The notes: generated by a model from the letters alone, not told the origin. DNA of 64,000 nt from Candidatus Altiarchaeales archaeon (GCA_023252215.1 JAHEXG010000002.1:16315-80314), one strand, 5' to 3'; positions 45,349 to 62,238 are shown, counted from the stretch's first letter. Numbers and translations: made by a program.

Positions 45349-45783
45349 TTGAAAGAGGAACCGGTTGCAAGGATAGCGATATCGCTCCCGCCAAAGCTCC
45401 TGGAAAAATTCGACGAGATGAGCGAAAGGATGGGCTACGCGAACCGCTCGGAAGCGATAAGGGACGCTGCGAGAAACTATATACTCAAAAACGAGCTACG
45501 AAGCGTAAAAGGAAAGCGAGTAGGAGTTATCTCCATAGTCTACGACCACGACGTGCGCGGAGTAAACGACGTATTGATCGACCTGCAGCACAGGTACCAT
45601 GACGTAATACAGTCAAGCACGCACCTGCACCTGGACGAACACAACTGCATGGAACTTATCATGGTCAGGGGCGAAGCAAAGAGGATAAACGAAATAAAGG
45701 ATCGGCTGACGACCGTTTCAGGCGTGACCCACAGCGACCTGTTGATAACTGGGATCGCTGCAAGCCACGAGCACGCGCACTAA
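45349..45783 (+). CDS. nikR: Nickel-responsive regulator NikR (ribbon-helix-helix plus C-terminal metal-binding domain)
   Basis: RHH ARIAISLPPKLLEKFDEM...RSEAIRDA. C-terminal H/C ligands HLHLDEHNCMEL...HEHAH. TTG start 6 nt after GGAGG, 1 nt after the lipoprotein stop. Confidence 0.7.
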   Translation: MKEEPVARIAISLPPKLLEKFDEMSERMGYANRSEAIRDAARNYILKNELRSVKGKRVGVISIVYDHDVRGVNDVLIDLQHRYHDVIQSSTHLHLDEHNCMELIMVRGEAKRINEIKDRLTTVSGVTHSDLLITGIAASHEHAH

Positions 45784-46741: not shown

Positions 46742-47497
46742 ATGAAACTCAAAAACAAGGTCGCAATAATCACAGGCGCATCCTCCGGCATCGGCCGGGC
46801 CATCGCAGAGCTTTACGCCGCAGAAGGGGCAATGATCGCGGTCGCAGACCTGGACGAAACAGGCGGCACTGAGACAGTTGATATCGTCAGGGAAAAAGGA
46901 GGATATGCCTTATTCGTAAAAACGGACGTATCCAAAGCCCGCGAAGTTGCCAGCATGGCCAGACAGGCCATGGAAAAATACGGCAGAATAGACATACTGG
47001 TGAACAACGCAGGGATCGAAGGAAAAAGCGCCTTAACCGCAGACTACCCGGAAGAAGACTGGGACAGAGTCCTTGCAGTGAACCTGAAAAGCGTTTTCCT
47101 ATGCTCTAAATACGTCATACCAGAGATGTTCAAGAACTGCCAGGGAGCGATCGTAAACATATCTTCCATCGCAGGCATGACGGCATTCCAAAAAGCCCCG
47201 GCATACGCAGCATCCAAGGCAGGAATAATAGCGCTGACACGCTCTATGGCAATCGAATACGCGCCGAACAACATCAGGGTGAACTGCATCTGCCCCGGCA
47301 TAATCAAGACCCCTATGGTGGAAAGGTCCACGAAAGGAAGCCTGGACGCCGAAAGAAAACTCATAAGAGAAGAACCCCTTGGAAGGATCGGCAAACCGGA
47401 AGAAGTCGCCAACGCGGCACTCTACCTCGCATCCGACGACTCATCATACGTAACAGGCTCAGCCCTTGTAGTAGACGGGGGCTGGACCATCAAATAA
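46742..47497 (+). CDS. SDR family oxidoreductase (FabG-like)
   Basis: TGASSGIGRA cofactor motif, NNAG, YxxxK catalytic (YAASK). Confidence 0.85.
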   Translation: MKLKNKVAIITGASSGIGRAIAELYAAEGAMIAVADLDETGGTETVDIVREKGGYALFVKTDVSKAREVASMARQAMEKYGRIDILVNNAGIEGKSALTADYPEEDWDRVLAVNLKSVFLCSKYVIPEMFKNCQGAIVNISSIAGMTAFQKAPAYAASKAGIIALTRSMAIEYAPNNIRVNCICPGIIKTPMVERSTKGSLDAERKLIREEPLGRIGKPEEVANAALYLASDDSSYVTGSALVVDGGWTIK

Positions 47498-47514
47498 GCC
47501 AGAACTAGCCTCGG

Positions 47515-48519
47515 CTAACACACCCTTGGCACGGGATCCCCCACAGGGGATTCAAGCAATCGTTCGCCGCCTACCGAAGTTTCCAGGATCACGCGGCCCC
47601 GGCCCTTCTTTGCCTCGCCTATTAAGGCGGCGTCTCTCCCGTATTTCGTCTTCTTCAGCGCTGCAAGGACCTTTTTCGCATCCTCCGGGGCAACGCCGAT
47701 AACAGCTTTGCCTTCGTTGGCGACAGACAAAGGATCCAGCCCAAGCATCTCCGATGCTGCGCGCACGCCGTCACGCACAGGTATGGAATCCTCATCCAAA
47801 AAAACATCCAACTTCGCTTTAGACGCCATCTCATTAATGCAACTAGCAAGGCCGCCCCGGGTCGGATCCTTCAATGCGTGCAAGTCGTATTTCAAGACCT
47901 TCTCGATCATCGGCCAAAGAGGCGCACAATCCGATACAAGCGACGATTCAAACTCTATTCCCTCACGATGAGACATTACCGCAATGCCATGGTCCCCGAC
48001 CGGCCCGCTTACTATCACCTTGTCTCCGGGACGCAGGCCGGCATCAGAGACCACCTTCTTTGCAACGCCCAGGCCAGCGGTGTTGACGAGCAGGCCAATA
48101 TCGCCGTCCACGACCTTTGTATCCCCGGTAACGATCGGAACACCTATTTCTCTTGAGACAGCATCCATGGACTCAACGATCCTGTGCAGATCAGCTATCG
48201 GAAAACCCGCGCCCACGATGAACGCAGACGAGATCGCAACAGGCCGGCCGCCCATCATGGACAGGTCGTTAATAGTCCCGCACATGGAAAGTTTCCCTAT
48301 GTCTCCGCCGGGAAAGAAGACAGGTTTTACAATGTATGAATCGGTAGTGAACACAAGGTGCTCGCCCTTGAAAGGAATCGTCGCGGCATCGTCCAGTTCT
48401 GCGAGGCCTATCCCCCCGGCAACGTTCTTTTTAGAGATCTTCTTGAGCAGGACTGAAAGCAGGCCATGCATCGCCTCCCCCCCGCCCCCGTGAACCAGCT
48501 TGATTTTCTCGTCTTTCAT
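47515..48519 (-). CDS. hypE: Hydrogenase maturation protein HypE
   Basis: N-terminal HGGGG, AIR-synthase-like fold, C-terminal PRVC. Confidence 0.85.
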   Translation of the reverse strand: MKDEKIKLVHGGGGEAMHGLLSVLLKKISKKNVAGGIGLAELDDAATIPFKGEHLVFTTDSYIVKPVFFPGGDIGKLSMCGTINDLSMMGGRPVAISSAFIVGAGFPIADLHRIVESMDAVSREIGVPIVTGDTKVVDGDIGLLVNTAGLGVAKKVVSDAGLRPGDKVIVSGPVGDHGIAVMSHREGIEFESSLVSDCAPLWPMIEKVLKYDLHALKDPTRGGLASCINEMASKAKLDVFLDEDSIPVRDGVRAASEMLGLDPLSVANEGKAVIGVAPEDAKKVLAALKKTKYGRDAALIGEAKKGRGRVILETSVGGERLLESPVGDPVPRVC

Positions 48520-49169
48520 TTCCTCTTTTCTTTTTCCTTCTTTATCCAGTCCGCGAACTCGTCTATGCCCATGTCTTTGCGGATGCTGGTCATGAATACC
48601 CTTAATTTAGAATTGATATGCAGCGCATCCCTTCTCATCTTCTCCGCATCCGCGCCCACTGCATCCGCGATGTCTATCTTGTTGATTACCGCGGCATCCG
48701 AGGACACAAATATCATCGGGTGCTTCTCCACGGTATCGTCGCCTTCGGAAACGGAAACAATGGTCACATTAAGCTGCGTACCAAGAACGAAATCCACGGG
48801 ACATATCAGATTACCCACGTTCTCGACGAAAAGGATGTCAATGTCTTTCAGATCAAAATGATCCGCAGCATGCTCCACAAGATGCGCGTCCAAATGGCAC
48901 TCCCTGCCGGTGTTCACGCCGAGGACCGGGATCCCCAATTTCTTCAACCGGTTCGCATCGAGGTCGCTTATTATGTCTCCGGCGATGGCCGCGATCCTGT
49001 ATCCTATGAGCTTTTTATGGAGGACCTCGATCATCGCAGTCTTGCCCGAGCCGATAGCGCCCATGAAATTTATCGCAAGCACCCCGGCTTCGTCGAATGT
49101 CTTACGATTGCGCTCCGCTATCTTATTGTTTATCTCGAAAACGTCCTTGTCCATGCCGATGACGTGCAT
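48516..49169 (-). CDS. hypB: Hydrogenase nickel incorporation GTPase HypB
   Basis: P-loop GAIGSGKT, GTPase G-domain. ATGA overlap with hypE. Confidence 0.85.
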   Translation of the reverse strand: MHVIGMDKDVFEINNKIAERNRKTFDEAGVLAINFMGAIGSGKTAMIEVLHKKLIGYRIAAIAGDIISDLDANRLKKLGIPVLGVNTGRECHLDAHLVEHAADHFDLKDIDILFVENVGNLICPVDFVLGTQLNVTIVSVSEGDDTVEKHPMIFVSSDAAVINKIDIADAVGADAEKMRRDALHINSKLRVFMTSIRKDMGIDEFADWIKKEKEKRK

Positions 49170-49270
49170 TTTTCCTTTAAATTACGAATTAAGTCCTTCC
49201 AATTAGCAGGCACCTAAACAACCTTATTTAATTTTTAGTATTCCCATTAATTATATAGAATATTACTCGC

Positions 49271-49564
49271 ATGAAAACCCTCAACGAGATTATGGTCGTA
49301 TTATCCGCTCACAGAGAAGAGCTTTCCAATCATTTTAGAGTGAAAAATGTGGGAATCTTCGGATCATACGTCCGAGGAGAGCAGAATAAGGGCAGCGACC
49401 TTGACGTTCTGGTGGAATTCGATGAACCTGTGAGCCTTCTAGGCTTAGCCAGGGTTGAGAATTTTTTGGGTGATCTTTTGGGTTTGAAGGTTGACGTAGT
49501 GCCTAAAAAAGACATCAGGCCGGAACTTCGCAAGAGGATTCTTGCAGAGACGGTGTTTGTATGA
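49271..49564 (+). CDS. mntA: MntA-type minimal nucleotidyltransferase (antitoxin of HepT/MntA pair)
   Basis: GIFGSYVRGEQNKGSDLDVLVEF (GS-x9-D-x-D). Confidence 0.75.
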   Translation: MKTLNEIMVVLSAHREELSNHFRVKNVGIFGSYVRGEQNKGSDLDVLVEFDEPVSLLGLARVENFLGDLLGLKVDVVPKKDIRPELRKRILAETVFV

Positions 49565-49833
49565 AAAGGGATGCGTCCATCTATCTAGGCGATATTTTGG
49601 AGAACCTTGACAGAGCCACAGAATTCGTCGGAGGCATGAGCTATGAAGACTTTGAATGCGACGAGAAGACTTTTTATGCTGTTGTCAGATGTATCGAAAT
49701 AATCGGCGAAGCTTCCAAAAACCGGCCTAACGACGTAAGGAAAGATTACCCGGATATACCCTGGAGAGACATTGCAGGGATGCGAGACAAGGTCATACAT
49801 TCCTATTTTGGAGTGAATCCACACAGAGTCTGA
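49561..49833 (+). CDS. hepT: HepT-type HEPN toxin (DUF86)
   Basis: R-x4-H-x-Y motif RDKVIHSY. ATGA overlap with mntA. Confidence 0.75.
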   Translation: MKRDASIYLGDILENLDRATEFVGGMSYEDFECDEKTFYAVVRCIEIIGEASKNRPNDVRKDYPDIPWRDIAGMRDKVIHSYFGVNPHRV

Positions 49834-49915
49834 CAGGTCATAAAAGAAGACCTGCCAATTCTCAGGCCGGTTATTAAGAAGGCGCTTGCAAAGATGAAAC
49901 CGGACAAATAGAAAA

Positions 49916-50278
49916 TTATTCCGCAGTTATCTCCTTGATCATGCATTCCCTTCCGCCCAAAGGCTTGGCGACTTCCCCGCATACCGGGCATTTCAGCCTC
50001 CGGGTCAGGGAATACACATCCTTCTTTTCAGGCATTATTTCGCTTACGTGCTTTTTTTGGCACTCGATCTTCAGAGGCAGTATCCTGCACTCGACCTTCG
50101 CTCCTTGCGCAGCAGTCCCCTCGATCAGTATCTCTAAAGCGAATACTAATTGGTCGACGCTTATCATCGACAATTGCCCGATCTCCAGGACGATCTTTGT
50201 AACCTTCTCTGCGCCGTGCTTCTTTGATTCTACGAGCACGCTTTCTACTATCCCTGAAGCTACGGAAAATTCGTGCAT
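49916..50278 (-). CDS. hypA: Hydrogenase nickel insertion protein HypA
   Basis: MHEFS N-terminus. C-terminal CPVCG zinc site. Confidence 0.8.
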   Translation of the reverse strand: MHEFSVASGIVESVLVESKKHGAEKVTKIVLEIGQLSMISVDQLVFALEILIEGTAAQGAKVECRILPLKIECQKKHVSEIMPEKKDVYSLTRRLKCPVCGEVAKPLGGRECMIKEITAE

Positions 50279-50279
50279 C

Positions 50280-51359
50280 TTATTTTCTGCCGTATTTGTA
50301 GGCGATGTGGCATGATCCTTCTCCCGATACCATGCACGGCCCGACCGGGTCGTCCGGCGTGCATCTTTCGGCGAACAGCGGGCAGTCGGCGGGATAGGCT
50401 ATCCCTTTTAGTATCTTTCCGCACGCGCAGCCCTTGGGCTCAGGCGCTTCTTTCACGTCTATTCGGAATTTTATGCGGGCGTCGTGTTCGCCGTATTCTT
50501 CTTTGATCGCGAGGCCCGATCCGGGTATCGCGGGAAAGCCGCGCCATTTTACGTCGCATGGCTCGAATACTTTTTCCAACACGTCCAGTGCTTTCTTGTT
50601 TCCATCCTCTTTCACGACGCGCGAGTACTCGTTCCGAACGCCGTGGTCTTTTTGTTTTATCATCTCCAAGAGGAGCAGTACTCCGTACAGCACGTCCACT
50701 GGCTCGAATCCTGCGACCACTTGGGGTACTTTGTATTTCTCGCCGACCGAACGGTATGGGCCCAGGCCGATTATCGCTGAAACGTGCCCTGGGTCGATGA
50801 ATCCGTTTATTTTTGTGTCTCCTTCCGAGAGCAGGAAATCCATCGCAGGGGGAATAGTCCTATGGCATGAGAGCACGTAGAAGTTCTCAGGAGCGGAAAG
50901 CAACTCCACCGCAGTTGAGGGGGCTGTTGTCTCAAAGCCTATCCCGACGTGTACGACCTCTTTTCCGGGAAGTTCTTTTGCCAGTTTCACGGCGTCGGTT
51001 ATGGAGTAGACTATTCGCACCTCGGCCCCTTCTGATTTCGCTTCCGCCAGAGATGATGCGCTTCCCGGAACCTTCAACATGTCCCCGAATGAAGTAACGC
51101 ATGCGCCTTCTTTTGCCAGGGCGATAGCCTCATCTATCTCCTTTGCAGTTATGACGCAGACAGGGCAGCCCGGCCCGGATATTATTTCCATATTGTCAGG
51201 GAGAAGGGAGCGGATGCCTGCTTTTGCGATAGCGTCCTCGTGCGTGCCGCAGACATGCATCAGGCGCACAGGGCCCATACCGGATGCAGTGCCGCAAATC
51301 TTTGCGACTATCTTTTCCGCCAGCCTGCGGTCCCGGAATCCTGCGAGATCCTTATCCAT
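50280..51359 (-). CDS. hypD: Hydrogenase maturation protein HypD
   Basis: CGTHE, GPGCPVCV and C-terminal CPxxC motifs. Confidence 0.85.
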   Translation of the reverse strand: MDKDLAGFRDRRLAEKIVAKICGTASGMGPVRLMHVCGTHEDAIAKAGIRSLLPDNMEIISGPGCPVCVITAKEIDEAIALAKEGACVTSFGDMLKVPGSASSLAEAKSEGAEVRIVYSITDAVKLAKELPGKEVVHVGIGFETTAPSTAVELLSAPENFYVLSCHRTIPPAMDFLLSEGDTKINGFIDPGHVSAIIGLGPYRSVGEKYKVPQVVAGFEPVDVLYGVLLLLEMIKQKDHGVRNEYSRVVKEDGNKKALDVLEKVFEPCDVKWRGFPAIPGSGLAIKEEYGEHDARIKFRIDVKEAPEPKGCACGKILKGIAYPADCPLFAERCTPDDPVGPCMVSGEGSCHIAYKYGRK

Positions 51360-51564
51360 CGGCTATCTCCTCCAGTATCTTCAAGGTCTCCTTGGCATCC
51401 TTTTCGTCGAGTACCTCTATTGCATATCCTGCATGGACTATGACGTATTCTCCGGGCTTAACGCTTACAAGGTCTACTTTGACGGTCCTGCGAATCCCTC
51501 CAAAGTCTACGGAAGCTTCTTTTCCCCGTATTTCAAGGACTATTCCAGGTATGGCAAGGCACAT
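51352..51564 (-). CDS. hypC: Hydrogenase maturation protein HypC
   Basis: MCLAIP N-terminus, 70 aa. Confidence 0.85.
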   Translation of the reverse strand: MCLAIPGIVLEIRGKEASVDFGGIRRTVKVDLVSVKPGEYVIVHAGYAIEVLDEKDAKETLKILEEIADG

Positions 51565-51613
51565 CTTAAGTTCTCCAATGATTTATCACTATAATTCATA
51601 TAACATTGGAATC

Positions 51614-53866
51614 ATGCGCAAAAAAGCCGTAATAGAGATATCAGGAACCGTGCAGGGAGTGGGTTTCCGCCCTTTCGTCTACCGCAGCGCAGGCAGCCTC
51701 GGAATAACGGGACAGGTCAAAAACCTCGGAGACGCAGGAGTAGAGATAATAGCCGAAGGAAACGAGGAATCCATAAAAAAACTCGTAGAGAAGATAAAGA
51801 AAGAAAAGCCCGTGAACGCCGGAATAGAGAGCATCAGAGTGCGCTGGACGGGCTACTCTCCCAAGCACAAGGATTTTCGCATAGTCCACAGCGACGGCAC
51901 AGGGCTTGGAGGAAAGATCATCCCGGATTACGGCATCTGCGATGCGTGCCTAAAAGAAGTCAGGAAAAAGAGCGACCGGCGATACCGCTACCCGCTCATC
52001 TCCTGCACAGACTGCGGCCCCCGTTTCACTGTCCTGCAGAAAATGCCCCTGGACAGGAAGAACACGTCCTACAAAAAATTCGCTCCATGCACCCGCTGCG
52101 AACACGAATACTCGGACCCCGAAAACAGGAGATTCTACGCCCAGACCATCGCCTGTCCCGTGTGCGGACCAGATTATTCCTTACTAGACAGCGTAGGCAG
52201 AAATAGCCCAAGACCGATAGAAACAGCAATACAAAAACTGAAGGAGGGACAGATACTTGCAATAAAAGGCGTCGGAGGAATGCACCTAGCCTGCCTGACA
52301 AAAAATGATACGGCAGTTTCGGAATTGAGAAATAGACGGCAGCGGCCATCGCAGCCTTTCGCAGTCATGGCTTCCCTGGAGATGATCAGGAAATTCGCGC
52401 AGGTCTCCCGTATGGAAGAAGCGCTACTCACTTCAAAGGAAAAGCCCATAGTCGTACTAAGAAAAAGCGCAGGCTACGGCCTGTCCGATCATGCAGCCCC
52501 GGGGCTTGAGAACATCGGAGTGATGCTTCCGTATACCGCTTTACATCACCTCCTCTTTGCGAGAATAAACGAGCCATTGATCATGACGTCTGCCAATCCC
52601 CGCGGCGAACCGATGATAAAGGACAACAGGGAGATATTAAAAAACAAGGCCGCAGACTACTATCTGCTACACGATCTGCGGATAATGAACCGGTGCGACG
52701 ACTCGGTGATAAAGATTGTGAACGGCAGGCCTGCTTTCATCCGCAGGAGCAGGGGGTACGTCCCAAGGCCGGTGAAACTCGAGAACCCGGACGGGAAGAC
52801 GGTTCTTGCTCTTGGCGCGGGAGAAAATGTTTCATTCTGCCTGCTCAAAGGAAACGATGCGTTCCTCAGCCAGCATATAGGGAACACGGAAAATCTGCGG
52901 ACGATGGAGTACCTGCAGGAAGCGATTGAAAACTTTATCAGGTTAATACCCTCAAGAATAGATGCCATCGCCTGCGACCTGCATCCCTCATTTAATACGA
53001 CGAAACAGGCCGCGCAATTAGGAGAAAAATATGGCGTTCCCGTAACCCGCGTCCAGCACCATCACGCGCATCTGTTATCCCTTGCGGGAGAACATGTTCT
53101 GGAAAAACTCGTCGGGATCTGCTGCGACGGCGTAGGCTACGGCACCGACGGAAAGGCGTGGGGCGGGGAAGTGTTCACGCTCAGGGACAAAGAGATAAAA
53201 AGGATAGGGCATCTGAAAGAACAATCCATGCCCGGCGGAGACCTCGCGGCACATTACCCGGCGCGGATGGCCGCCGGGATTCTCTACGGAGCATACTCAT
53301 ATGACGAGCTGCAGAACATCCTCTCGGACCTGTATTACAAACACGGGAAAAAAGAGATGGAAATCGTCCTTGCACAGTTGGAAAATGGAATAAACGTGCA
53401 GAAGACTACGTCGACAGGCAGGGTGCTTGACGCGGCAGCATCTTTGCTCGGAGTCTGCCATTATAGGACATACGAAGGAGAGCCTGCGATGAAACTGGAA
53501 GCGGCAGGGAGGGGAGGAAAAGACCTGCATTTTCCGGTAGTAACGAAGAAAGGCATATTGGACACATCAGCACTTTTGAAAGAGGTCGTGGAAGCAAAGA
53601 AAGAACACAAAACAAGAGACATCGCCTACTCACTGGAGACCGCGCTTGCAAGGGGGCTTGCGAGGATAGCTGTAACTGCTGCGCAAAAAGACCGTATCAG
53701 CACCATAGGAGTGTCGGGGGGCGTAGCCTACAACGACGTATTCGTCAGGGCCGTTGCAGAATATGTTAAAAGAAGCGAACTGGGATTCGTGCAGAACGAA
53801 CGGGTGCCGTGCGGAGACGGAGGGATTTCATACGGGCAGGCTGCGTATTACAAAAAAATATGCTGA
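51614..53866 (+). CDS. hypF: Carbamoyltransferase HypF
   Basis: Acylphosphatase domain GTVQGVGFRPFVY. Two CxxC-x18-CxxC zinc fingers. YrdC-like and Kae1-like domains. True start MRKKAVIEISG at 51614; the track ORF from 51284 is over-extended. Confidence 0.9.
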   Translation: MRKKAVIEISGTVQGVGFRPFVYRSAGSLGITGQVKNLGDAGVEIIAEGNEESIKKLVEKIKKEKPVNAGIESIRVRWTGYSPKHKDFRIVHSDGTGLGGKIIPDYGICDACLKEVRKKSDRRYRYPLISCTDCGPRFTVLQKMPLDRKNTSYKKFAPCTRCEHEYSDPENRRFYAQTIACPVCGPDYSLLDSVGRNSPRPIETAIQKLKEGQILAIKGVGGMHLACLTKNDTAVSELRNRRQRPSQPFAVMASLEMIRKFAQVSRMEEALLTSKEKPIVVLRKSAGYGLSDHAAPGLENIGVMLPYTALHHLLFARINEPLIMTSANPRGEPMIKDNREILKNKAADYYLLHDLRIMNRCDDSVIKIVNGRPAFIRRSRGYVPRPVKLENPDGKTVLALGAGENVSFCLLKGNDAFLSQHIGNTENLRTMEYLQEAIENFIRLIPSRIDAIACDLHPSFNTTKQAAQLGEKYGVPVTRVQHHHAHLLSLAGEHVLEKLVGICCDGVGYGTDGKAWGGEVFTLRDKEIKRIGHLKEQSMPGGDLAAHYPARMAAGILYGAYSYDELQNILSDLYYKHGKKEMEIVLAQLENGINVQKTTSTGRVLDAAASLLGVCHYRTYEGEPAMKLEAAGRGGKDLHFPVVTKKGILDTSALLKEVVEAKKEHKTRDIAYSLETALARGLARIAVTAAQKDRISTIGVSGGVAYNDVFVRAVAEYVKRSELGFVQNERVPCGDGGISYGQAAYYKKIC

Positions 53867-54065
53867 TTTTTGAATTCGATATCGGCATTTTCTTTTTCCA
53901 TTGATAACTTTTTTTCACCTGTTCATTTACTTTCTAAACTTTTTTTCGCTATCCTACGAGTTGTTTTTTTCTTTCTTTAAATTTTTGTCTTCCATTATAT
54001 ATTTGTTTAATCGCATTATTGTAATGATTAATCATTATAATTAATCACTTAACCAGGTGAAGTAA

Positions 54066-56204
54066 TTGAAAGTATTCCTTTACGACTTCGGCGGAGAGAT
54101 AAAGTACCCGGAGAACCTAGACTTCGGGAAGGACGTAGAGATCATCCGCCTGAAAGACATATCCACCGAAGAGACGCGCCGCACAGTTGAAAAGGCGCTC
54201 AAAACAGACAAGGTCGTATTCGTAGGGCCAAGCCACCGCATATCCGAAAGATTTTTTTCCGATCCGAACATAAAGTTCGTGAACGCGCGGGAACATGTGG
54301 CATGGGTGGGCCATAACCCGGAAAAGATAAGGGACCTCGTACAGGGTTCCATAGACAAATTACGTAACTCAAATAAAATAGAGAATAAGCGTTTTCTCAT
54401 AAAGCACAAAAGCGCGCTGGTCATAGGGGCCGGGATAGCCGGCCTGGAAACCGCGCGACAGATAGCTAATTCCGGATACAAGGTATACTTGATAGAGAAG
54501 AAACCATTCGTCGGGGGGCTTGTGGCCCGCCTGGACAGGCTGTATCCTGCGGGGACGCCCAACTCCCATATTCTTTACCCGCTCATAAACGAAGTAGTCA
54601 GCAACCCGAATGTAGAGGTCCTCGTGAACACGGAAATGGAAAAAGCCGAGGGCACCGTGGGGGACTACGCGGTAAAGCTGAAGATCAAAGGAAACGTCGT
54701 CGAAGGAAAATTGCCTAAAAAATGCGAGGAAGTCTGCCCTGTAGAAGTCGTGGATAAGATACCGCGCAAGGCGATATACTATCAGCCCACTTATCCTGAA
54801 TCGTACGGCATAGACTTCGATGCCTGCACCAAATGCGGTAACTGCGTGAAAGTAATGCCGGAACTATCCCTTGGAGAGACTGAGAGAACCATACACGTAG
54901 GCGCGATAGTCGTCGCAACCGGGCTCAAGGGGTATGACGCAAAAAGGATAGTCGAATACGGCTACGGCAGGTACCCCAACGTATACACGAAGCTGGAATT
55001 CGAAAGAAGATTCGCAAACGGCCTCATAAAGCCCAAGAGCGTAGTCATCGTGAACTGCGCAGGATCGCGCGACAAGAATCACCTGCCTTACTGCTCCAGA
55101 GTCTGCTGCATGCTCGGCCTTAAGGCAGCAAAACTCATAAAGGACACAGCCCCCGAAACCGAGGTCTACGTAAATTACATAGACATGCGAAGCTACGGCA
55201 TATTCGAGGAATTCTATAACATCGTACGCGAAACATACGGCGTAAAATTCGTGCAGGGACGCCCCTCGGAGATACTCCAGGACGCGGACGGAAAACTCGT
55301 TGTAAGATGCGAAGACATCCTCCTGGACAAGAACATCGAGATGAAAGTAGATTGCGTAGTCCTCATGACAGGCTTCGTCCCGGACAAGGAATCATTCGAC
55401 AAACTCGGGATATACACCGCAGGAGCATACCCGGTAGAATACGTAAACTCCACATACTCAATAGACTCGAATCCCAGGGGAATATTCATCGCAGGCTCCG
55501 CAGGCTACCCCAAAGACGTAGCCGAGATACTGATAAACGCGGCAAACGCCCCCGGCGGAGTCATCGAAATACTGAGCAAAGACTACGTAGAAAACAAGAC
55601 ACCAACCGCGAAGATCGACTCCAGGATATGCAGCGAGAACAACTGCAGGATATGCATCACGGCCTGCCCATACGGCGCAGTGCACATGAAAGGAGAGGAG
55701 GTAGTAGTCAATGAGGAAGTATGCATGGGCTGCGGCATATGCACTGCCACCTGCGCCGCAGGAGCAAACCAGCTCCAGGGATTCGAAGAAAAGGGAATGC
55801 TCGCACAGATAGGAGGCATGACCAAAAAAGGGGACGTGATCGCTTTTATGTGCAAGTGGAGTTCCTACAACGCCGCGGACAAGGCGGGACAGGAGCGCCT
55901 GACCTACCCCGAGAACGTAAAGATAATACGCGTGCCATGCACGGGCCGTGTCTCCGCGCAGATGATACTCAAATCCTACGAATCCGGCGCGAAGGCGGTC
56001 CTGGTCGCAGGCTGCCCGCCGGACGCATGCCACTACTTCACTGGCAACTTCAAGGCAAGAAAAAGGATAACCGCATTAAAGGCCATGCTTTCCCAGTTCG
56101 GCATAGATCCCGAAACGCTAGCGATCGAATGGATAGGAAAAGACGAGTCAAAGAAATTCGCGGAGACGGTAACGAGACTGAACGGATTAAAACAGCAAAA
56201 ATGA
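54066..56204 (+). CDS. hdrA: Heterodisulfide reductase subunit A-like flavoprotein with C-terminal MvhD domain fusion
   Basis: FAD motif VIGAGIAGLETA. Multiple 4Fe-4S Cys clusters (CTKCGNC, CSENNCRIC, CMGCGIC). C-terminal MvhD-like domain (CKWSSYNAADKAG...VPCTGRVS...CPPDACHY). TTG start. Confidence 0.8.
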   Translation: MKVFLYDFGGEIKYPENLDFGKDVEIIRLKDISTEETRRTVEKALKTDKVVFVGPSHRISERFFSDPNIKFVNAREHVAWVGHNPEKIRDLVQGSIDKLRNSNKIENKRFLIKHKSALVIGAGIAGLETARQIANSGYKVYLIEKKPFVGGLVARLDRLYPAGTPNSHILYPLINEVVSNPNVEVLVNTEMEKAEGTVGDYAVKLKIKGNVVEGKLPKKCEEVCPVEVVDKIPRKAIYYQPTYPESYGIDFDACTKCGNCVKVMPELSLGETERTIHVGAIVVATGLKGYDAKRIVEYGYGRYPNVYTKLEFERRFANGLIKPKSVVIVNCAGSRDKNHLPYCSRVCCMLGLKAAKLIKDTAPETEVYVNYIDMRSYGIFEEFYNIVRETYGVKFVQGRPSEILQDADGKLVVRCEDILLDKNIEMKVDCVVLMTGFVPDKESFDKLGIYTAGAYPVEYVNSTYSIDSNPRGIFIAGSAGYPKDVAEILINAANAPGGVIEILSKDYVENKTPTAKIDSRICSENNCRICITACPYGAVHMKGEEVVVNEEVCMGCGICTATCAAGANQLQGFEEKGMLAQIGGMTKKGDVIAFMCKWSSYNAADKAGQERLTYPENVKIIRVPCTGRVSAQMILKSYESGAKAVLVAGCPPDACHYFTGNFKARKRITALKAMLSQFGIDPETLAIEWIGKDESKKFAETVTRLNGLKQQK

Positions 56205-57190
56205 CAGGAAAAGAAAAGCTAAAGATCGCCATATGCCGGGGATGCACATGCTCAGGCTGCGACATAGCGATACTCGACATACACGAGCGCCTGCTTAAAG
56301 TGATCGAGAAGGCGGACATAGTATACGCTCCGACCATCATGGATGCGAAGAATGCGGACGTTGAGAAAATGAAAGACCGGGAAATAGACGTCTGCTTCTA
56401 TCACGGCGCGGTCCGCGATTCCGACAACGAGGAGCTTGCACGTTTGCTGCGCAAAAAGTCCAAGATAATGATAGCCTTCGGCGCATGCGCCTGCTTCGGC
56501 GGAATATTCGGCCTTGCGAACACCACCAACAGAAAGGAGATATTCGAAGAAGTCTATAAGAACACAGCCTCCACCGACAATCCTGAGGGCATAATGCCCC
56601 AAACGGAATACGCGGACAAGAAAGGACACACAATGACCCTGCCGGAGATCTACGACAGCGTCTATCCACTGAATGAAAAAGTAGCCGTCGACTACTACAT
56701 CCCGCTGTGCCCGCCGATACCGGACCAGATAATGACGGGACTTGCCGCCATCACCTCAGGGAACCTCCCCCCAAAAGGAACGATACTCGCATCAGAAAAA
56801 ACGCTATGCAGCGAATGCGAAAGAACAAGGTCCCAGGTCAGGAAGATAGGCAAGATACACCGCCCCCACGAAATAGAAATCGACCAAGAGAAGTGCATGC
56901 TGGACCAGGGACTATTATGCATGGGCCCCGCGACGAGAGCCGGCTGCGGGACTATCTGCGTGAAGGCGAACGTGCCATGCCGCGGCTGCAACGGCCCCAC
57001 GAGCCAGGAATACGACCAGGGAGCAAACATGCTCAGCCTCGTTGCCACGATATACGGAATACCCGAAGAATCGCTCACAGAAGAAGACGTAAAAAAGGCG
57101 ATGAAAGAAATAAAAGACCCGCTGGGAACTTTTTACAGATACACGTTGCCTACGTCGATACTGAAAAGAAAAAGGATGGACGGAAAATGA
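56201..57190 (+). CDS. mvhG: [NiFe] hydrogenase small subunit (MvhG-like)
   Basis: N-terminal CRGCTCSGCD, further FeS Cys clusters. ATGA overlap with hdrA. Track ORF from 55721 is over-extended. Confidence 0.8.
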   Translation: MTGKEKLKIAICRGCTCSGCDIAILDIHERLLKVIEKADIVYAPTIMDAKNADVEKMKDREIDVCFYHGAVRDSDNEELARLLRKKSKIMIAFGACACFGGIFGLANTTNRKEIFEEVYKNTASTDNPEGIMPQTEYADKKGHTMTLPEIYDSVYPLNEKVAVDYYIPLCPPIPDQIMTGLAAITSGNLPPKGTILASEKTLCSECERTRSQVRKIGKIHRPHEIEIDQEKCMLDQGLLCMGPATRAGCGTICVKANVPCRGCNGPTSQEYDQGANMLSLVATIYGIPEESLTEEDVKKAMKEIKDPLGTFYRYTLPTSILKRKRMDGK

Positions 57191-58662
57191 CGGAAAAGAA
57201 AAAGCAGATCACGATCAACCCGGTCACCCGGCTCGAAGGCCACGCGAAAATAGATATCTTCCTGAATGACGAAGGCAACGTGGAGGATGCATATTTCCAG
57301 GTAATCGAGCTGCGGGGCTTTGAAAAATTCTGCCAGGGCAGGCCTGCCGAAGAGATGCCGAGGATCGCGCCTCACATCTGCGGAGTGTGCCCTAACCCGC
57401 ATCACATGGCCTCCGGGAAGGCGGTCGACATGGTGTTCGGGGTCGAAGCGACCGAGACTGCAAAGAAACTGCGGGAACTGTCTCTCTGCGCGCACTATGT
57501 GCACAGCCACATAGCGCACTTCTACGCACTTGCCGGACCAGACTTTATCGTGGGGCCGGCTGCGCCAGCAAAAGACCGGAACATCATCGGAGTAATAAAC
57601 AAAGTAGGGGTGAAGATAGGCGGGGACGTAATACAAGCCCGCGCCTATGCGCAGAAGATACAGGCGATCATCAGCGGCAGGGCGACTCATCCGATAAACA
57701 ACCTTCCGGGAGGGCTTGCTAAGCCCATCACTGCCGAAGAGCAGAAGGAGATCGAAAGGATGAGCAAAACTTTGGTGGACTTCGGGAAATTCACGCTCCA
57801 GATATTCGAAGACGCCGTAGTCAAGAACAAGGCATACGCAGACATAATAACAGGGGACATATACCGGCACAGGACGTATTACATGGGCACGGTCGACAAA
57901 AACAACAAGGTAAATTTCTACGACGGAGCTATACGCGTGGTCGACCCGGAAGGAAAAGAATACGAAAAATTCCGCGGAGAAAAATACCTGGACCACATCG
58001 CAGAGCACGTGGAGCCCTGGACCTACCTCAAATTCCCATACCTCAAAAATAAAGGATGGAAGGGCATAGTCGACGGAAAAGAATCAGGAGTATACCGCGT
58101 CGCACCGCTGGCCCGGCTGAACGCCGCAGACGGCATGGCGACTCCGCTCGCGGACGAGGCATACCAAAAGATGTACGAGACCCTTGGAGGAAAACCGGTC
58201 CATGCAACGCTTGCGATGCACTGGGCCAGGGTCATAGAGATAATGTACGCGGCAGAGAGGATAAAAGAACTGGTAGAAGATCCGCAGATAACGGACACGG
58301 ACGTGCGCAACATCCCAACGGATGTCGTGGGCGTAGGCATAGGCCAGGTTGAAGCGCCCCGCGGAACGCTGTTCCACCACTACTGGACAGACGACGACGG
58401 CATGATCACCAAATTGAACATACTCGTCGCCACGGGAAACAACAATGCTGCGATCTGCATGTCCGTAAAGCGCGCTGCCGAGAAACTGATAAAGAACTGG
58501 AAGGTAGACGACGGCATATTGAACATGATAGAGATGGCGTTCCGGGCGTACGACCCATGCTTCGCATGCGCTACTCACACGCTGCCAGGGCACATGCCTT
58601 TGGAGATCAGGATCTTTGACTCCGGGAAAAACTTATACAAGACAATATCGCGTTATGAATAA
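57187..58662 (+). CDS. mvhA: [NiFe] hydrogenase large subunit (MvhA-like)
   Basis: RLEGH and CGVCP N-terminal Ni-site motifs. C-terminal DPCFACATH with a cleavable extension. ATGA overlap with the small subunit. Confidence 0.85.
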   Translation: MTEKKKQITINPVTRLEGHAKIDIFLNDEGNVEDAYFQVIELRGFEKFCQGRPAEEMPRIAPHICGVCPNPHHMASGKAVDMVFGVEATETAKKLRELSLCAHYVHSHIAHFYALAGPDFIVGPAAPAKDRNIIGVINKVGVKIGGDVIQARAYAQKIQAIISGRATHPINNLPGGLAKPITAEEQKEIERMSKTLVDFGKFTLQIFEDAVVKNKAYADIITGDIYRHRTYYMGTVDKNNKVNFYDGAIRVVDPEGKEYEKFRGEKYLDHIAEHVEPWTYLKFPYLKNKGWKGIVDGKESGVYRVAPLARLNAADGMATPLADEAYQKMYETLGGKPVHATLAMHWARVIEIMYAAERIKELVEDPQITDTDVRNIPTDVVGVGIGQVEAPRGTLFHHYWTDDDGMITKLNILVATGNNNAAICMSVKRAAEKLIKNWKVDDGILNMIEMAFRAYDPCFACATHTLPGHMPLEIRIFDSGKNLYKTISRYE

Positions 58663-60730: not shown

Positions 60731-61927
60731 TCAGACGATGACCCTGCTTTTTGCATATGACGCATAAAGGAAAATAACGGTGATCGCAACTGCCAGCAGC
60801 ATACTGGCCATGAATCCTGCAGAATAATTCGCCCAGGTTATTATTATCCCGGTCAACAACGGTCCTGCGGTCTGCCCGATGTCCATGATGGCAGAAAGCG
60901 CCCCCATGGACGCGCCCAACTCCTTCTTTTTACATACGTCCGCAGTATAGGTGGTCGTCGCTATCGTAGACGTTGAAATGGCAAGGCCTGCGACAACGCT
61001 TATCAACAGGTACCCGGCCATGTCCGCAGCATAAGGCACCGCAGCCATAGCCACGCCCAAAGCCGTGAGGCCCAACGCTATCTGCTTTCTTTTGTCCACC
61101 CGGTCCGCGGCTTTGCCTAAAAGAGGCTTGCTTATCGCTATCGTAAATATCTGAATAGAGAAAATAATCCCGGTATCTGTCGCGGAAAAGCCTTTGAACT
61201 GCAAAAACAACGGAAGATAGGTCTCCAGCGCACCATAAGAAAAATACGTGGACAGATCAACGAGGGCTGTTGCAAAAAGTAATCGATCGGAAAAGAATGC
61301 GACAAGGCTCTGCTTGAAGTCTGCAAAACTGACAGAGCCCTGCACCCTGCCGTCGTCGTCCCGGTAGAATAGGATTATCAGAAGCACCGGCACGGCCGCG
61401 GCCGCAGCTATCAGGTAAACCGTCTGGTAATTGCTGAAACCCATAAAAGCATACTGCGCTAACACCATGCCGCCCGCCAGGGGCGCAATAGTCCGGCCGA
61501 ACAATGTCGCAGACGAATATAAGCCGATCTTTTCTCCCTTGGTCTTGGAATATTTCTCTGCAAGGATGGCCGAAACCACAGGCCCAAGAATTGCTGTCGC
61601 CGCGCCGTGGAAGAACCGGATAGGGATGAGAAACCAGGGATTCGAAACCAAAAGATACAAAGGAGGAGCTGCAACGAATATCAACCCGGCCAAGGTCAGG
61701 AGTTTTTTTCTTCCCAACCGGTCGGACGCAACGCCGATCGGGAAACTAAAAACCACGCCCGCAAAAGGCGAAAGAGCCGCTATCAGGCCGATCAATGCAT
61801 CGTCCGCGCCAAGGGAATGCGCATACAATGGGAGGACAGGGTTCTTGCTTATCGTGGTCGAGAAAATGGCGAAGAAGCCGATAAGGGAGAAGTAATATAT
61901 TAGGTTCTTGCTGGTTGAGTCGCCCAT
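60731..61927 (-). CDS. MFS transporter
   Basis: 12 predicted TM segments. MFS signature-like VASDRLGRKKLL. Confidence 0.75.
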   Translation of the reverse strand: MGDSTSKNLIYYFSLIGFFAIFSTTISKNPVLPLYAHSLGADDALIGLIAALSPFAGVVFSFPIGVASDRLGRKKLLTLAGLIFVAAPPLYLLVSNPWFLIPIRFFHGAATAILGPVVSAILAEKYSKTKGEKIGLYSSATLFGRTIAPLAGGMVLAQYAFMGFSNYQTVYLIAAAAAVPVLLIILFYRDDDGRVQGSVSFADFKQSLVAFFSDRLLFATALVDLSTYFSYGALETYLPLFLQFKGFSATDTGIIFSIQIFTIAISKPLLGKAADRVDKRKQIALGLTALGVAMAAVPYAADMAGYLLISVVAGLAISTSTIATTTYTADVCKKKELGASMGALSAIMDIGQTAGPLLTGIIITWANYSAGFMASMLLAVAITVIFLYASYAKSRVIV

Positions 61928-61947: not shown

Positions 61948-62238
61948 TCATGCGTAGACTACCTCTCTCAAAACTCTGTCCCTCATCTGTGTTTTGAGGG
62001 CTTTAACGGTAACAAGATCCACCGTGATCCCAAGGATCTCTTCCAGGTACTCTTTAAGGTCAAGGAACTCCCATCCAATTGGTTTGGAAAACTCTACGAG
62101 AATGTCCACGTCGCTTTTGCTTCTGGCCTCTCCACGGGCATAGGAGCCGAAGACGCCTATCTCTTTGACATTGAATTCCTTTTTCAAAAAAGGCTTACTC
62201 TTCTTGAGCGTTTCCTCGATGTCGCTGAGAGTTTTCAT
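61948..62238 (-). CDS. Orphan MntA-type nucleotidyltransferase (no adjacent HEPN partner)
   Basis: GVFGSYARGEARSKSDVDILVEF. Only 20 bp separate it from the MFS gene start, leaving no room for a HEPN ORF. Confidence 0.7.
   Translation of the reverse strand: MKTLSDIEETLKKSKPFLKKEFNVKEIGVFGSYARGEARSKSDVDILVEFSKPIGWEFLDLKEYLEEILGITVDLVTVKALKTQMRDRVLREVVYA

Follow-up and report, generated by a model that had tools for sequence, protein, structure and literature searches.

A toxin–antitoxin (TA) cassette consisting of the genes mntA and hepT lies in the middle of the hydrogenase-maturation (hyp) gene cluster of a Candidatus Altiarchaeales archaeon, in a 64,000-nucleotide stretch of DNA (GCA_023252215.1 JAHEXG010000002.1:16315-80314; hereafter the window, within which all coordinates are counted). 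This MntA/HepT cassette is of an ordinary and abundant kind; it is old, it is shared by relatives and its toxin gene is disabled in the window. The data are best explained by an old cassette which split an ancestral hypCDABE operon, was kept in related lineages and then lost its toxin gene here, with hypBE probably transcribed from a promoter of their own, an account that we regard as likely. Based on a map of open reading frames (ORFs) and a Pfam scan, the gene order hypE-hypB on the minus strand, mntA-hepT on the plus strand, hypA-hypD-hypC on the minus strand and hypF on the plus strand agrees with the original prediction, made from the sequence of this locus, and Pfam supports the family of each gene (Table 1). 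All six Hyp families are thus present, namely HypC, HypD, HypA, HypB (cobW), HypE (AIRS/AIRS_C) and HypF. The contiguous, one-strand hypCDABE arrangement is not found in the window, where a 746-bp antisense insert parts hypA from hypB. This segment has a GC content of 42.6%, versus 50-55% in the flanking hyp genes.

The ancestral state of the locus has been deduced from related genomes. A HypD-based scan, with one genome per species, identified as nearest genome an Altiarchaeia metagenome-assembled genome, L001 (JBAQYF010000031), whose HypD is 85% identical and which aligns collinearly with the window, nucleotide identity being about 76-81%; the source organism is an Altiarchaeia archaeon. The hypB start codon follows the hypA stop codon after 9 bp in L001, 4 bp in the metagenome contig L087 and 4 bp in the outgroup L091 (TGA-N-ATG), and both genes are also adjacent in more distant archaeal loci (e.g., L010, L096, L050 and L114). 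This contiguity supports that hypCDABE is the ancestral order and that the cassette is an insertion, in agreement with the earlier proposal that it interrupts a single ancestral operon. The cassette would have entered after the stop codon of hypA and ahead of the short spacer that precedes the hypB start; as it lies on the other strand, it is convergent with hypA and divergent from hypB.

The original prediction further treated the insertion as a possibly recent event, a view which could not be maintained; nor is the cassette confined to this genome. When the nearest relatives of MntA and HepT were looked up by exact protein, an equally oriented copy of the same cassette turned up beside hypA in five other related lineages. 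At synonymous sites, the cassette has diverged to a degree comparable with the flanking hyp genes. MntA is 89% identical to that of the window in L082, where hepT carries a nonsense codon at position 29, 86% in L083 (hepT intact, 116 aa), 85% in L084/L085 (hepT intact, 115 aa) and 78% in L137 (hepT intact, 147 aa), a contig whose HypA is only 66% identical to that of the window. The ERZ1426824 contig encodes an intact HepT, 79% identical to that of the window, along with an extra 300-aa gene beside hypB, between hypB and mntA. A probable homologue of this extra gene stands at the left border of L137. It had been set beforehand that an ancient, fixed arrangement would be indicated if relatives in all lineages bore this pair at this position. 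Such sharing is largely what was observed, though not in every lineage, L001 and L087 for instance being devoid of the cassette. In the four aligned lineages (the window, L082, L083 and L084), the stop codons of hepT and hypA are only 4-5 bp apart, and the leader of hypB is common to all. When examined, the cassette borders showed no target-site duplication, no direct or terminal repeats and no recombinase gene.

Pairwise Nei-Gojobori estimates of nonsynonymous (dN) and synonymous (dS) divergence provided further insight into the age of the cassette. The dN/dS ratios are 0.08-0.14 for mntA and 0.04-0.05 for hepT, while nearly all hyp-gene pairs fall within 0.04-0.14, the exception being hypD in the near-identical pair L082-L083 (0.20). 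When the window was compared with L082/L083, the cassette gave dS values of 0.49-0.62 and the hyp genes values of 0.68-1.2; the comparison with L084 yielded 1.0 in mntA and 1.2-1.7 in the hyp genes. Low dN/dS ratios, along with dS values slightly under those of the flanking hyp genes, indicate that the cassette has long been kept under purifying selection. Judged from these substitution rates, the cassette is old, and strong purifying selection has acted on both of its genes during most of its history.

How many times the cassette reached this site is less straightforward, and several observations weigh against a single insertion followed by simple descent. In a neighbour-joining tree of concatenated Hyp proteins, (L084,((L001,L087),(window,(L082,L083)))), with bootstrap values of 98-100, the cassette-free L001 and L087 are nested within the cassette-bearing group, so that a single ancient insertion also needs either a clean loss or a lateral or allelic replacement in that branch; their junction looks ancestral, which is awkward for a deletion. 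In addition, the cassette tree joins L084 with L137 (95% bootstrap), and these two lineages share 90% identity in MntA and 81% in HepT, versus 65% in HypA and 68% in the HypD C-terminus. This discordance hints at a lateral exchange of the cassette, read from amino-acid rates only, as synonymous sites are saturated for all genes; a recent L084-L137 transfer was dropped as a firm claim for the same reason. Finally, related cassettes, with HepT 72-76% identical, occur in non-hyp contexts in L134, L135 and L136.

Alternatively, the hypA/hypB junction would be a hotspot, favoured for landing or recombination, which gained closely related MntA/HepT cassettes repeatedly or exchanged them between Altiarchaeia lineages by homologous recombination using the conserved flanks in hypA and hypB. 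The patchy distribution on the Hyp tree and the TGA-4..9 bp-ATG junction retained in L001 and L087 are in line with this possibility, as are the occurrence of other cargo in the same orientation at the L089 junction (a PIN_2 toxin, an 81-aa ORF and a polysaccharide deacetylase) and of the extra gene in the ERZ1426824 contig. However, the window, L082, L083 and L084 share the same hypA boundary and the same hypB leader, the examined borders lack a recombinase gene, direct repeat or target duplication, and the L084-L137 discordance carries the saturation limit given above. Moreover, in all pairs that could be compared, the dS values of the cassette and of the adjoining hyp genes run in parallel, as co-inheritance predicts. 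Repeated gain is thus a tentative alternative, which we hold to be rather unlikely, and the hypA/hypB junction is best described as a variable site.

The assignment of the cassette follows the published definition of Class I (type VII) HepT/MntA modules, in which a PF01909 protein with a GSX10DXD motif is encoded beside a PF01934 protein with an RX4HXY motif (PMC7641770). MntA matches PF01909 (NTP_transf_2) with 74 bits (cutoff 21) and contains the motif G31-S32-x10-D43-L-D45. The motif had initially been read as GS-x9-DxD; the spacing is in fact GS-x10-DxD, residues 31-45, as the definition requires (PMC7641770). HepT matches PF01934 (HepT-like/DUF86) with 81 bits (cutoff 23.5) and, as anticipated, contains the HEPN motif R-x4-HxY, at R75-DKVI-H80-S-Y82. 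The predicted ATGA coupling is also borne out, the two genes overlapping by 4 bp (49561-49564) with the minimal nucleotidyltransferase (MNT) gene upstream. By these Pfam, motif and gene-order features of the sequence, the pair is a Class I module, with the caveat that a complete HEPN toxin of about 115 aa including its C-terminal helix is encoded by the orthologues in L083 and L084 and not by the window. On narrower models, the scores are lower: MntA reaches 45.7 bits on NCBIfam NF047752 (MntA_antitoxin), under its 60-bit cutoff, and HepT scores 28.4 bits on NF047751 (HepT_toxin; cutoff 60) once its tryptophan codon is restored, the truncated protein giving no hit. The pair is therefore outside the narrow NCBIfam equivalog models and inside the broader Pfam-defined class.

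A phmmer search of HepT against PDB sequences returned nothing at E<=0.001 and a profile search gave marginal matches to 5YEP and 6M6U at E about 0.1, so that the family placement rests on Pfam and on a fold search. The latter was performed with an AlphaFold model of P0001, a full-length orthologue 79% identical to the window HepT, used in place of the window protein. This model, with a predicted local distance difference test score (pLDDT) of 89.6 and a predicted template modelling score (pTM) of 0.84, contains a long C-terminal helix spanning residues 87-114 (pLDDT 94-96). The PDB entries closest to it are HepT/HEPN toxins, namely 5YEP, 7AE6, 7AE8 and 7BXO, with template modelling (TM) scores of 0.63-0.73 and a match probability of 1.0; with 6M6U included, the range becomes 0.55-0.73. 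In characterized modules, HepT is a HEPN RNase which is switched off when MntA oligo-AMPylates the motif tyrosine (PMC7641770). By family precedent, the intact HepT encoded at this locus would be a HEPN RNase with an RX4HXY active site, and MntA, through its GSX10DXD site, would oligo-AMPylate Y82 and turn the RNase off, as the motifs and the published mechanism suggest. A viral source of the cassette is unsupported, a scan of viral contigs with MntA yielding only a 22-residue partial match.

In the window, hepT differs from its orthologues by a premature stop, contrary to the initial view of the pair as an intact TA module. Codon alignment revealed that codon 91 is TGA (49831-49833) in the window and TGG in L082, L083 and L084, and a protein search showed that the corresponding residue, Trp91, is invariant in 37 of 37 HepT homologues. 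Pro99, located eight residues further, is likewise invariant in the 37 homologues. The reading frame continues past the TGA for 25 more codons, up to a TAG codon (49909-49911) located 4 bp from the hypA stop, and this remnant (49834-49911) shows 2 amino-acid differences over 25 residues from L083. The truncated HepT matches only model positions 1-102 of the 120 of the Pfam family, and in the predicted fold the remnant would correspond to most of the C-terminal helix 87-114. The 82 bp from 49834 to 49915, which had been proposed as a terminator region, are mostly this in-frame coding remnant. Since purifying selection has acted on both cassette genes as they diverged together with their flanks, the nonsense mutations found in the window and in L082 must be recent, and the TGG-to-TGA change, which is present in the window only, would have been gained lately at this invariant position. 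The decay of hepT is indeed very recent, its remnant being still in frame and 2 of 25 residues away from an intact orthologue.

A sequencing or assembly error, or the reading of TGA as tryptophan, would leave hepT intact. Such an explanation fits with the one-base difference between TGG and TGA and with the fully kept downstream frame. However, the run SRR14366796, assembled independently by Logan (L081), gives a sequence with 100% identity across 7,006 bp, the TGA included, and the 90-aa HepT product (P0002) is found in the protein database from NCBI, Logan and ENA sources. In addition, TGA is the regular stop codon of mntA in all four orthologues, where it yields the standard length of 97 aa, which excludes a UGA=Trp code. 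We therefore consider an artefact or a recoded codon highly improbable.

It could also be envisaged that the 90-aa protein is still an active, perhaps weaker, RNase which is kept in check by MntA, the pair remaining a working TA module. Indeed, the truncated HepT keeps its full RX4HXY motif, which makes some residual activity conceivable and speaks against a complete loss of function. The 81-bit Pfam match, an mntA gene intact with its GSX10DXD motif and the lack of an excess of amino-acid changes on the window branch, in either gene, point in the same direction. Conversely, the stop codon removes invariant Trp91, invariant Pro99 and nearly the whole of helix 87-114, which is modelled with high confidence. 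The sister lineage L082 has also lost hepT, by an early nonsense mutation (GAA to TAA at codon 29) found in L082 only and acquired independently, and the Asgard locus L076 retains MntA beside a 51-aa HepT remnant, so that toxin decay next to a retained antitoxin recurs. For these reasons, a functional pair appears unlikely in the window. As the stop at codon 91 strips nearly all of the long C-terminal helix from the modelled HEPN bundle, HepT toxicity has most likely been lost, which would leave mntA as an orphaned antitoxin gene.

The consequences of the insertion for the expression of the hyp genes have been addressed by a simple scan for TATA-like octamers and T-runs, as appropriate for an archaeal host, whose promoter calls are not confident ones. 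The 101-bp spacer between hypB and mntA contains a block of 21 nt, ATTCCCATTAATTATATAGAA (49240-49260), identical in the window, L082, L083 and L084, and a conserved AT-rich block (49222-49262) has TATA-like octamers in both orientations (Table 1). The latter is consistent with divergent promoters predicted for mntA-hepT and for hypBE. On the other side of the argument, the best plus-strand octamer (49250-49257) is only ~17 nt from the mntA ATG. This is shorter than the usual archaeal TATA-to-start distance, which renders the promoter assignment uncertain. A palindrome in the spacer, TATTC-N14-GAATA, was rejected as an operator, being only 72% complementary and not conserved in L084.

In cassette-free relatives, the 4-9 bp between hypA and hypB imply that the two genes are co-transcribed. 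The distance is 746 bp where the cassette is present, and a transcript started at the hypC promoter of the window would need to read through this whole stretch, antisense to the cassette. The hyp strand has a T4 run right after the hypA stop and T5, T6 and T5 runs across the cassette. Such a long antisense stretch with several T-runs suggests that hypBE are probably transcribed from a promoter of their own within the conserved AT-rich spacer, which they would share with mntA. The original prediction held that the cassette probably supplies a promoter and a terminator of its own and may thereby uncouple hypBE from hypCDA; given the conserved AT-rich block of the spacer, such an uncoupling is plausible. 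On the plus strand, the T-run scan found no run of T4 or longer downstream of the hepT stop, and cassette transcripts probably run antisense into hypA.

This arrangement raises the question of whether the cassette has been co-opted for hydrogenase maturation, for instance with mntA-hepT transcripts that reach into hypA, convergently or as antisense, and tune hypCDA, or by supplying a promoter needed for hypBE. Its persistence in one place while under purifying selection, for a dS of about 0.5-1, the perfect conservation of the 21-nt block in the spacer shared with hypB, the probable antisense transcription into hypA and the persistence of mntA and the spacer after toxin loss in two lineages would fit with such a role; a TA module inside a hydrogenase operon also has a precedent in Synechocystis (PMC4963859). 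Nevertheless, the close relatives L001 and L087 have a tightly packed operon without the cassette, L137 and the ERZ1426824 contig carry other genes between the cassette and hypB, and an ordinary addictive TA module would show the same purifying selection on both genes. Furthermore, five independent TA events were found among the roughly 130 hyp loci fetched (the Altiarchaeia cassette, L089, L064/L076, L060 and L094). Compared with the abundance of TA modules in archaeal genomes, chance would suffice, on a rough reckoning, to explain this number. Co-option is therefore quite improbable in our view.

A more ambitious interpretation combines these ideas: the Altiarchaeia hypA/hypB junction would be a long-lived, cargo-swapping hotspot in which hypBE came to depend on a cassette-borne promoter, a selfish element having been domesticated as a control region for nickel insertion. 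The cargo states would then be an empty junction, MntA/HepT, MntA/HepT with an extra gene, and a PIN toxin with a deacetylase, always antisense to hyp. If true, the dependence of hypBE on the cassette promoter would account for the persistence of mntA and of the conserved spacer block after the death of the toxin in two lineages. We give this scenario little credence as a whole and retain the first account, in which an old cassette split the operon, was inherited by several lineages and lost its toxin in the window.

Several known systems can be compared with this locus. Class I HepT/MntA examples include SO_3166/SO_3165 from Shewanella oneidensis and CL1_0071/CL1_0070 from Thermococcus cleftensis (PMC7641770); further examples are the Aphanizomenon HEPN/MNT structures 7AE2-7AE9. 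As in these systems, the cassette is a two-gene module in which a small MNT gene precedes an overlapping HEPN gene, PF01909 and PF01934 are paired with GSX10DXD and RX4HXY, and the predicted fold is best matched by 5YEP, 7AE8 and 7BXO. The closest in format is the archaeal T. cleftensis pair, whose motif tyrosine is also at position 82 (Y82; PMC7641770). Unlike them, the window has a toxin gene cut at codon 91 of 116, whose product is devoid of the C-terminal helix; only 12-14% sequence identity is shared with the solved proteins.

In Synechocystis sp. PCC 6803, the TA module Sll1225-Ssl2420 is located inside the hoxEFUYH hydrogenase operon, and a function in operon stabilisation has been proposed (PMC4963859). 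Similarly, the cassette lies among hydrogenase-related genes and is conserved between related strains. However, the Synechocystis module is of another TA family, is bacterial, and is co-transcribed with structural hydrogenase genes, while the cassette of the window is antisense to maturation genes and splits their operon.

Regarding the hyp genes, canonical hypCDABE clusters with a divergent hypF (L001, L010, L050, L096 and L114) encode the six Hyp proteins of the window, with identical gene order and orientation, and the genes likewise abut closely or overlap at the hypC/D/A and hypB/E junctions. The window differs in its hypA-hypB gap, which holds the 746-bp antisense insert instead of 4-9 bp. 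Degenerate or orphan antitoxin loci which arise after toxin decay are a general pattern for chromosomal TA modules. The window resembles such loci (e.g., L076 and L082), in which the antitoxin gene is intact and the neighbouring toxin gene has been inactivated by nonsense mutation or deletion. It differs from them by its very recent decay and in-frame remnant.

Regarding annotation, hepT of the window should be flagged as truncated or as a pseudogene, and the apparent 82-bp intergenic region as a coding remnant. The locus exemplifies and dates the turnover of a TA module in a phylum of uncultured archaea, with an insertion in the operon of an essential pathway and a retention over a dS of ~0.5-1. 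Some interest lies in the clean evolutionary record, in which a long phase of purifying selection preceded the independent loss of the toxin in two lineages where the antitoxin stayed. Further points are that one junction of the operon varies in its cargo and that hypBE are probably controlled separately. In physiological terms, cassette-bearing Altiarchaeia probably express hypBE apart from hypCDA, unlike their closest cassette-free relatives. Known HepT/MntA chemistry and Hyp function are unchanged by these findings.

Table 1. Features of the hyp locus and of its mntA-hepT cassette, in window coordinates.
Feature	Coordinates	Strand	Description
hypE	47515-48519	-	334 aa; 4-bp overlap with hypB; Pfam AIRS + AIRS_C; 84-90% identity to orthologues
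hypB	48516-49169	-	217 aa, nickel GTPase; Pfam cobW/HypB/UreG 9e-21; 92-93% identity to L001, L082, L083
hypB-mntA divergent spacer	49170-49270	.	101 bp, 27.7% GC; putative promoter region for mntA-hepT (+) and hypBE (-)
TATA-like octamer ATTAAATA	49232-49225	-	scan
TATA-like octamer TTTAATTT	49227-49234	+	scan
TATA-like octamer ATTATATA	49250-49257	+	scan
TATA-like octamer TCTATATA	49259-49252	-	scan
mntA	49271-49564	+	97 aa, intact; minimal nucleotidyltransferase antitoxin; PF01909 1.2e-20
hepT, truncated ORF	49561-49833	+	90 aa; PF01934 5.8e-23; R75-x4-H80-x-Y82 kept
Premature stop in hepT, TGA for TGG (Trp91)	49831-49833	+	codon alignment versus L082, L083, L084
In-frame 3' remnant of hepT, QVIKEDLPILRPVIKKALAKMKPDK then TAG	49834-49911	+	25 codons past the premature TGA
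hypA	49916-50278	-	120 aa; Pfam HypA 7e-23; convergent with hepT
hypD	50280-51359	-	359 aa; Pfam HypD 4e-143
hypC	51352-51564	-	70 aa; Pfam HupF_HypC 2e-26
hypC-hypF divergent control region	51565-51613	.	49 bp; inverted repeat TCCAATGATTTAT-N11-ATATAACATTGGA at 51574-51610
hypF	51614-53866	+	750 aa from conserved ATG 51614; Pfam acylphosphatase, zf-HYPF, Sua5/YrdC, HypF_C

The other TA events encountered in hyp loci are diverse. In the Altiarchaeia contig L089 (HypB 83% identical), opposite-strand cargo (578-2041) lies between hypA (203-565) and hypB (2141-2797). It comprises a PIN_2-domain toxin (5.8e-20) preceded by the 81-aa ORF, which has no Pfam hit and is probably the antitoxin of the PIN_2 protein, along with the polysaccharide deacetylase. 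In two Asgard loci (Promethearchaeota/Loki), L064 (1865-2502) and L076 (7387-7838), an opposite-strand MntA/HepT pair stands between hypE and hypD, which are adjacent in the other Asgard loci L061, L066 and L078; HepT is intact in L064 (113 aa), and the L076 remnant does not contain the catalytic motif. The hypE/hypD gap of L060 encodes a MazE/AbrB-type antitoxin (5.9e-13) and a PIN toxin (2.2e-17), and the hypA/hypF gap of L094 a Fic/Doc protein (1e-9) with a weak UPF0175-like neighbour. In other Altiarchaeota, insertions between hypD and hypA are on the same strand as hyp: L005 (9076-10736) has two ORFs resembling an ABC ATPase and a SufBD-like protein, and L008 (9080-9523) a 147-aa ORF with a sub-threshold match to a WapI-like immunity protein (25 bits, cutoff 27).

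The window also encodes a second, solitary MntA-like nucleotidyltransferase (61948-62238, minus strand) of 96 aa, 40% identical to the cassette MntA (PF01909 1.5e-17; NCBIfam MntA 58.4 bits). It is devoid of a HEPN partner, is followed downstream by a membrane-transporter-like gene (60731-61927) and may be another orphan antitoxin.

As for the hyp genes themselves, the divergence of hypF and hypC around a shared region of about 50 bp had been correctly foreseen, with the spacer being 49 bp long when measured from the hypF start at ATG 51614, a codon kept in five relatives. Most of this spacer, which is kept in L082, L083 and L084 and to some extent in L001, is occupied by a 13-nt inverted repeat, TCCAATGATTTAT-N11-ATATAACATTGGA. 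The repeat may be an operator, and a NikR-type gene is located nearby at ~45350-45783; it is statistically ordinary, with at least one match in 21 of 100 shuffled sequences. An Rfam search over 47000-54200 at E<=1 retrieved no structured-RNA family, and an exact-sequence look-up of HypB no record. The hypB gene of L084 (5212-5869) is broken into two ORFs, of 134 and 103 aa, which overlap; it is either a frameshift pseudogene or an assembly error.

Downstream of hypF (54066-58662, plus strand), an adjoining HdrA-like gene with a FlpD/MvhD-like domain is followed by ORFs resembling the small and large subunits of an Mvh-type [NiFe]-hydrogenase, which the hyp genes presumably serve; L001, L005 and L082 share the order hdrA-hypF-hypCDA. 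At the other end of the locus, a short-chain dehydrogenase gene (46742-47497, plus strand) lies directly downstream of hypE. L082, L083 and the ERZ1426824 contig also have this gene, which is missing from L001 and L084 and thus represents a second indel in the hyp flank.

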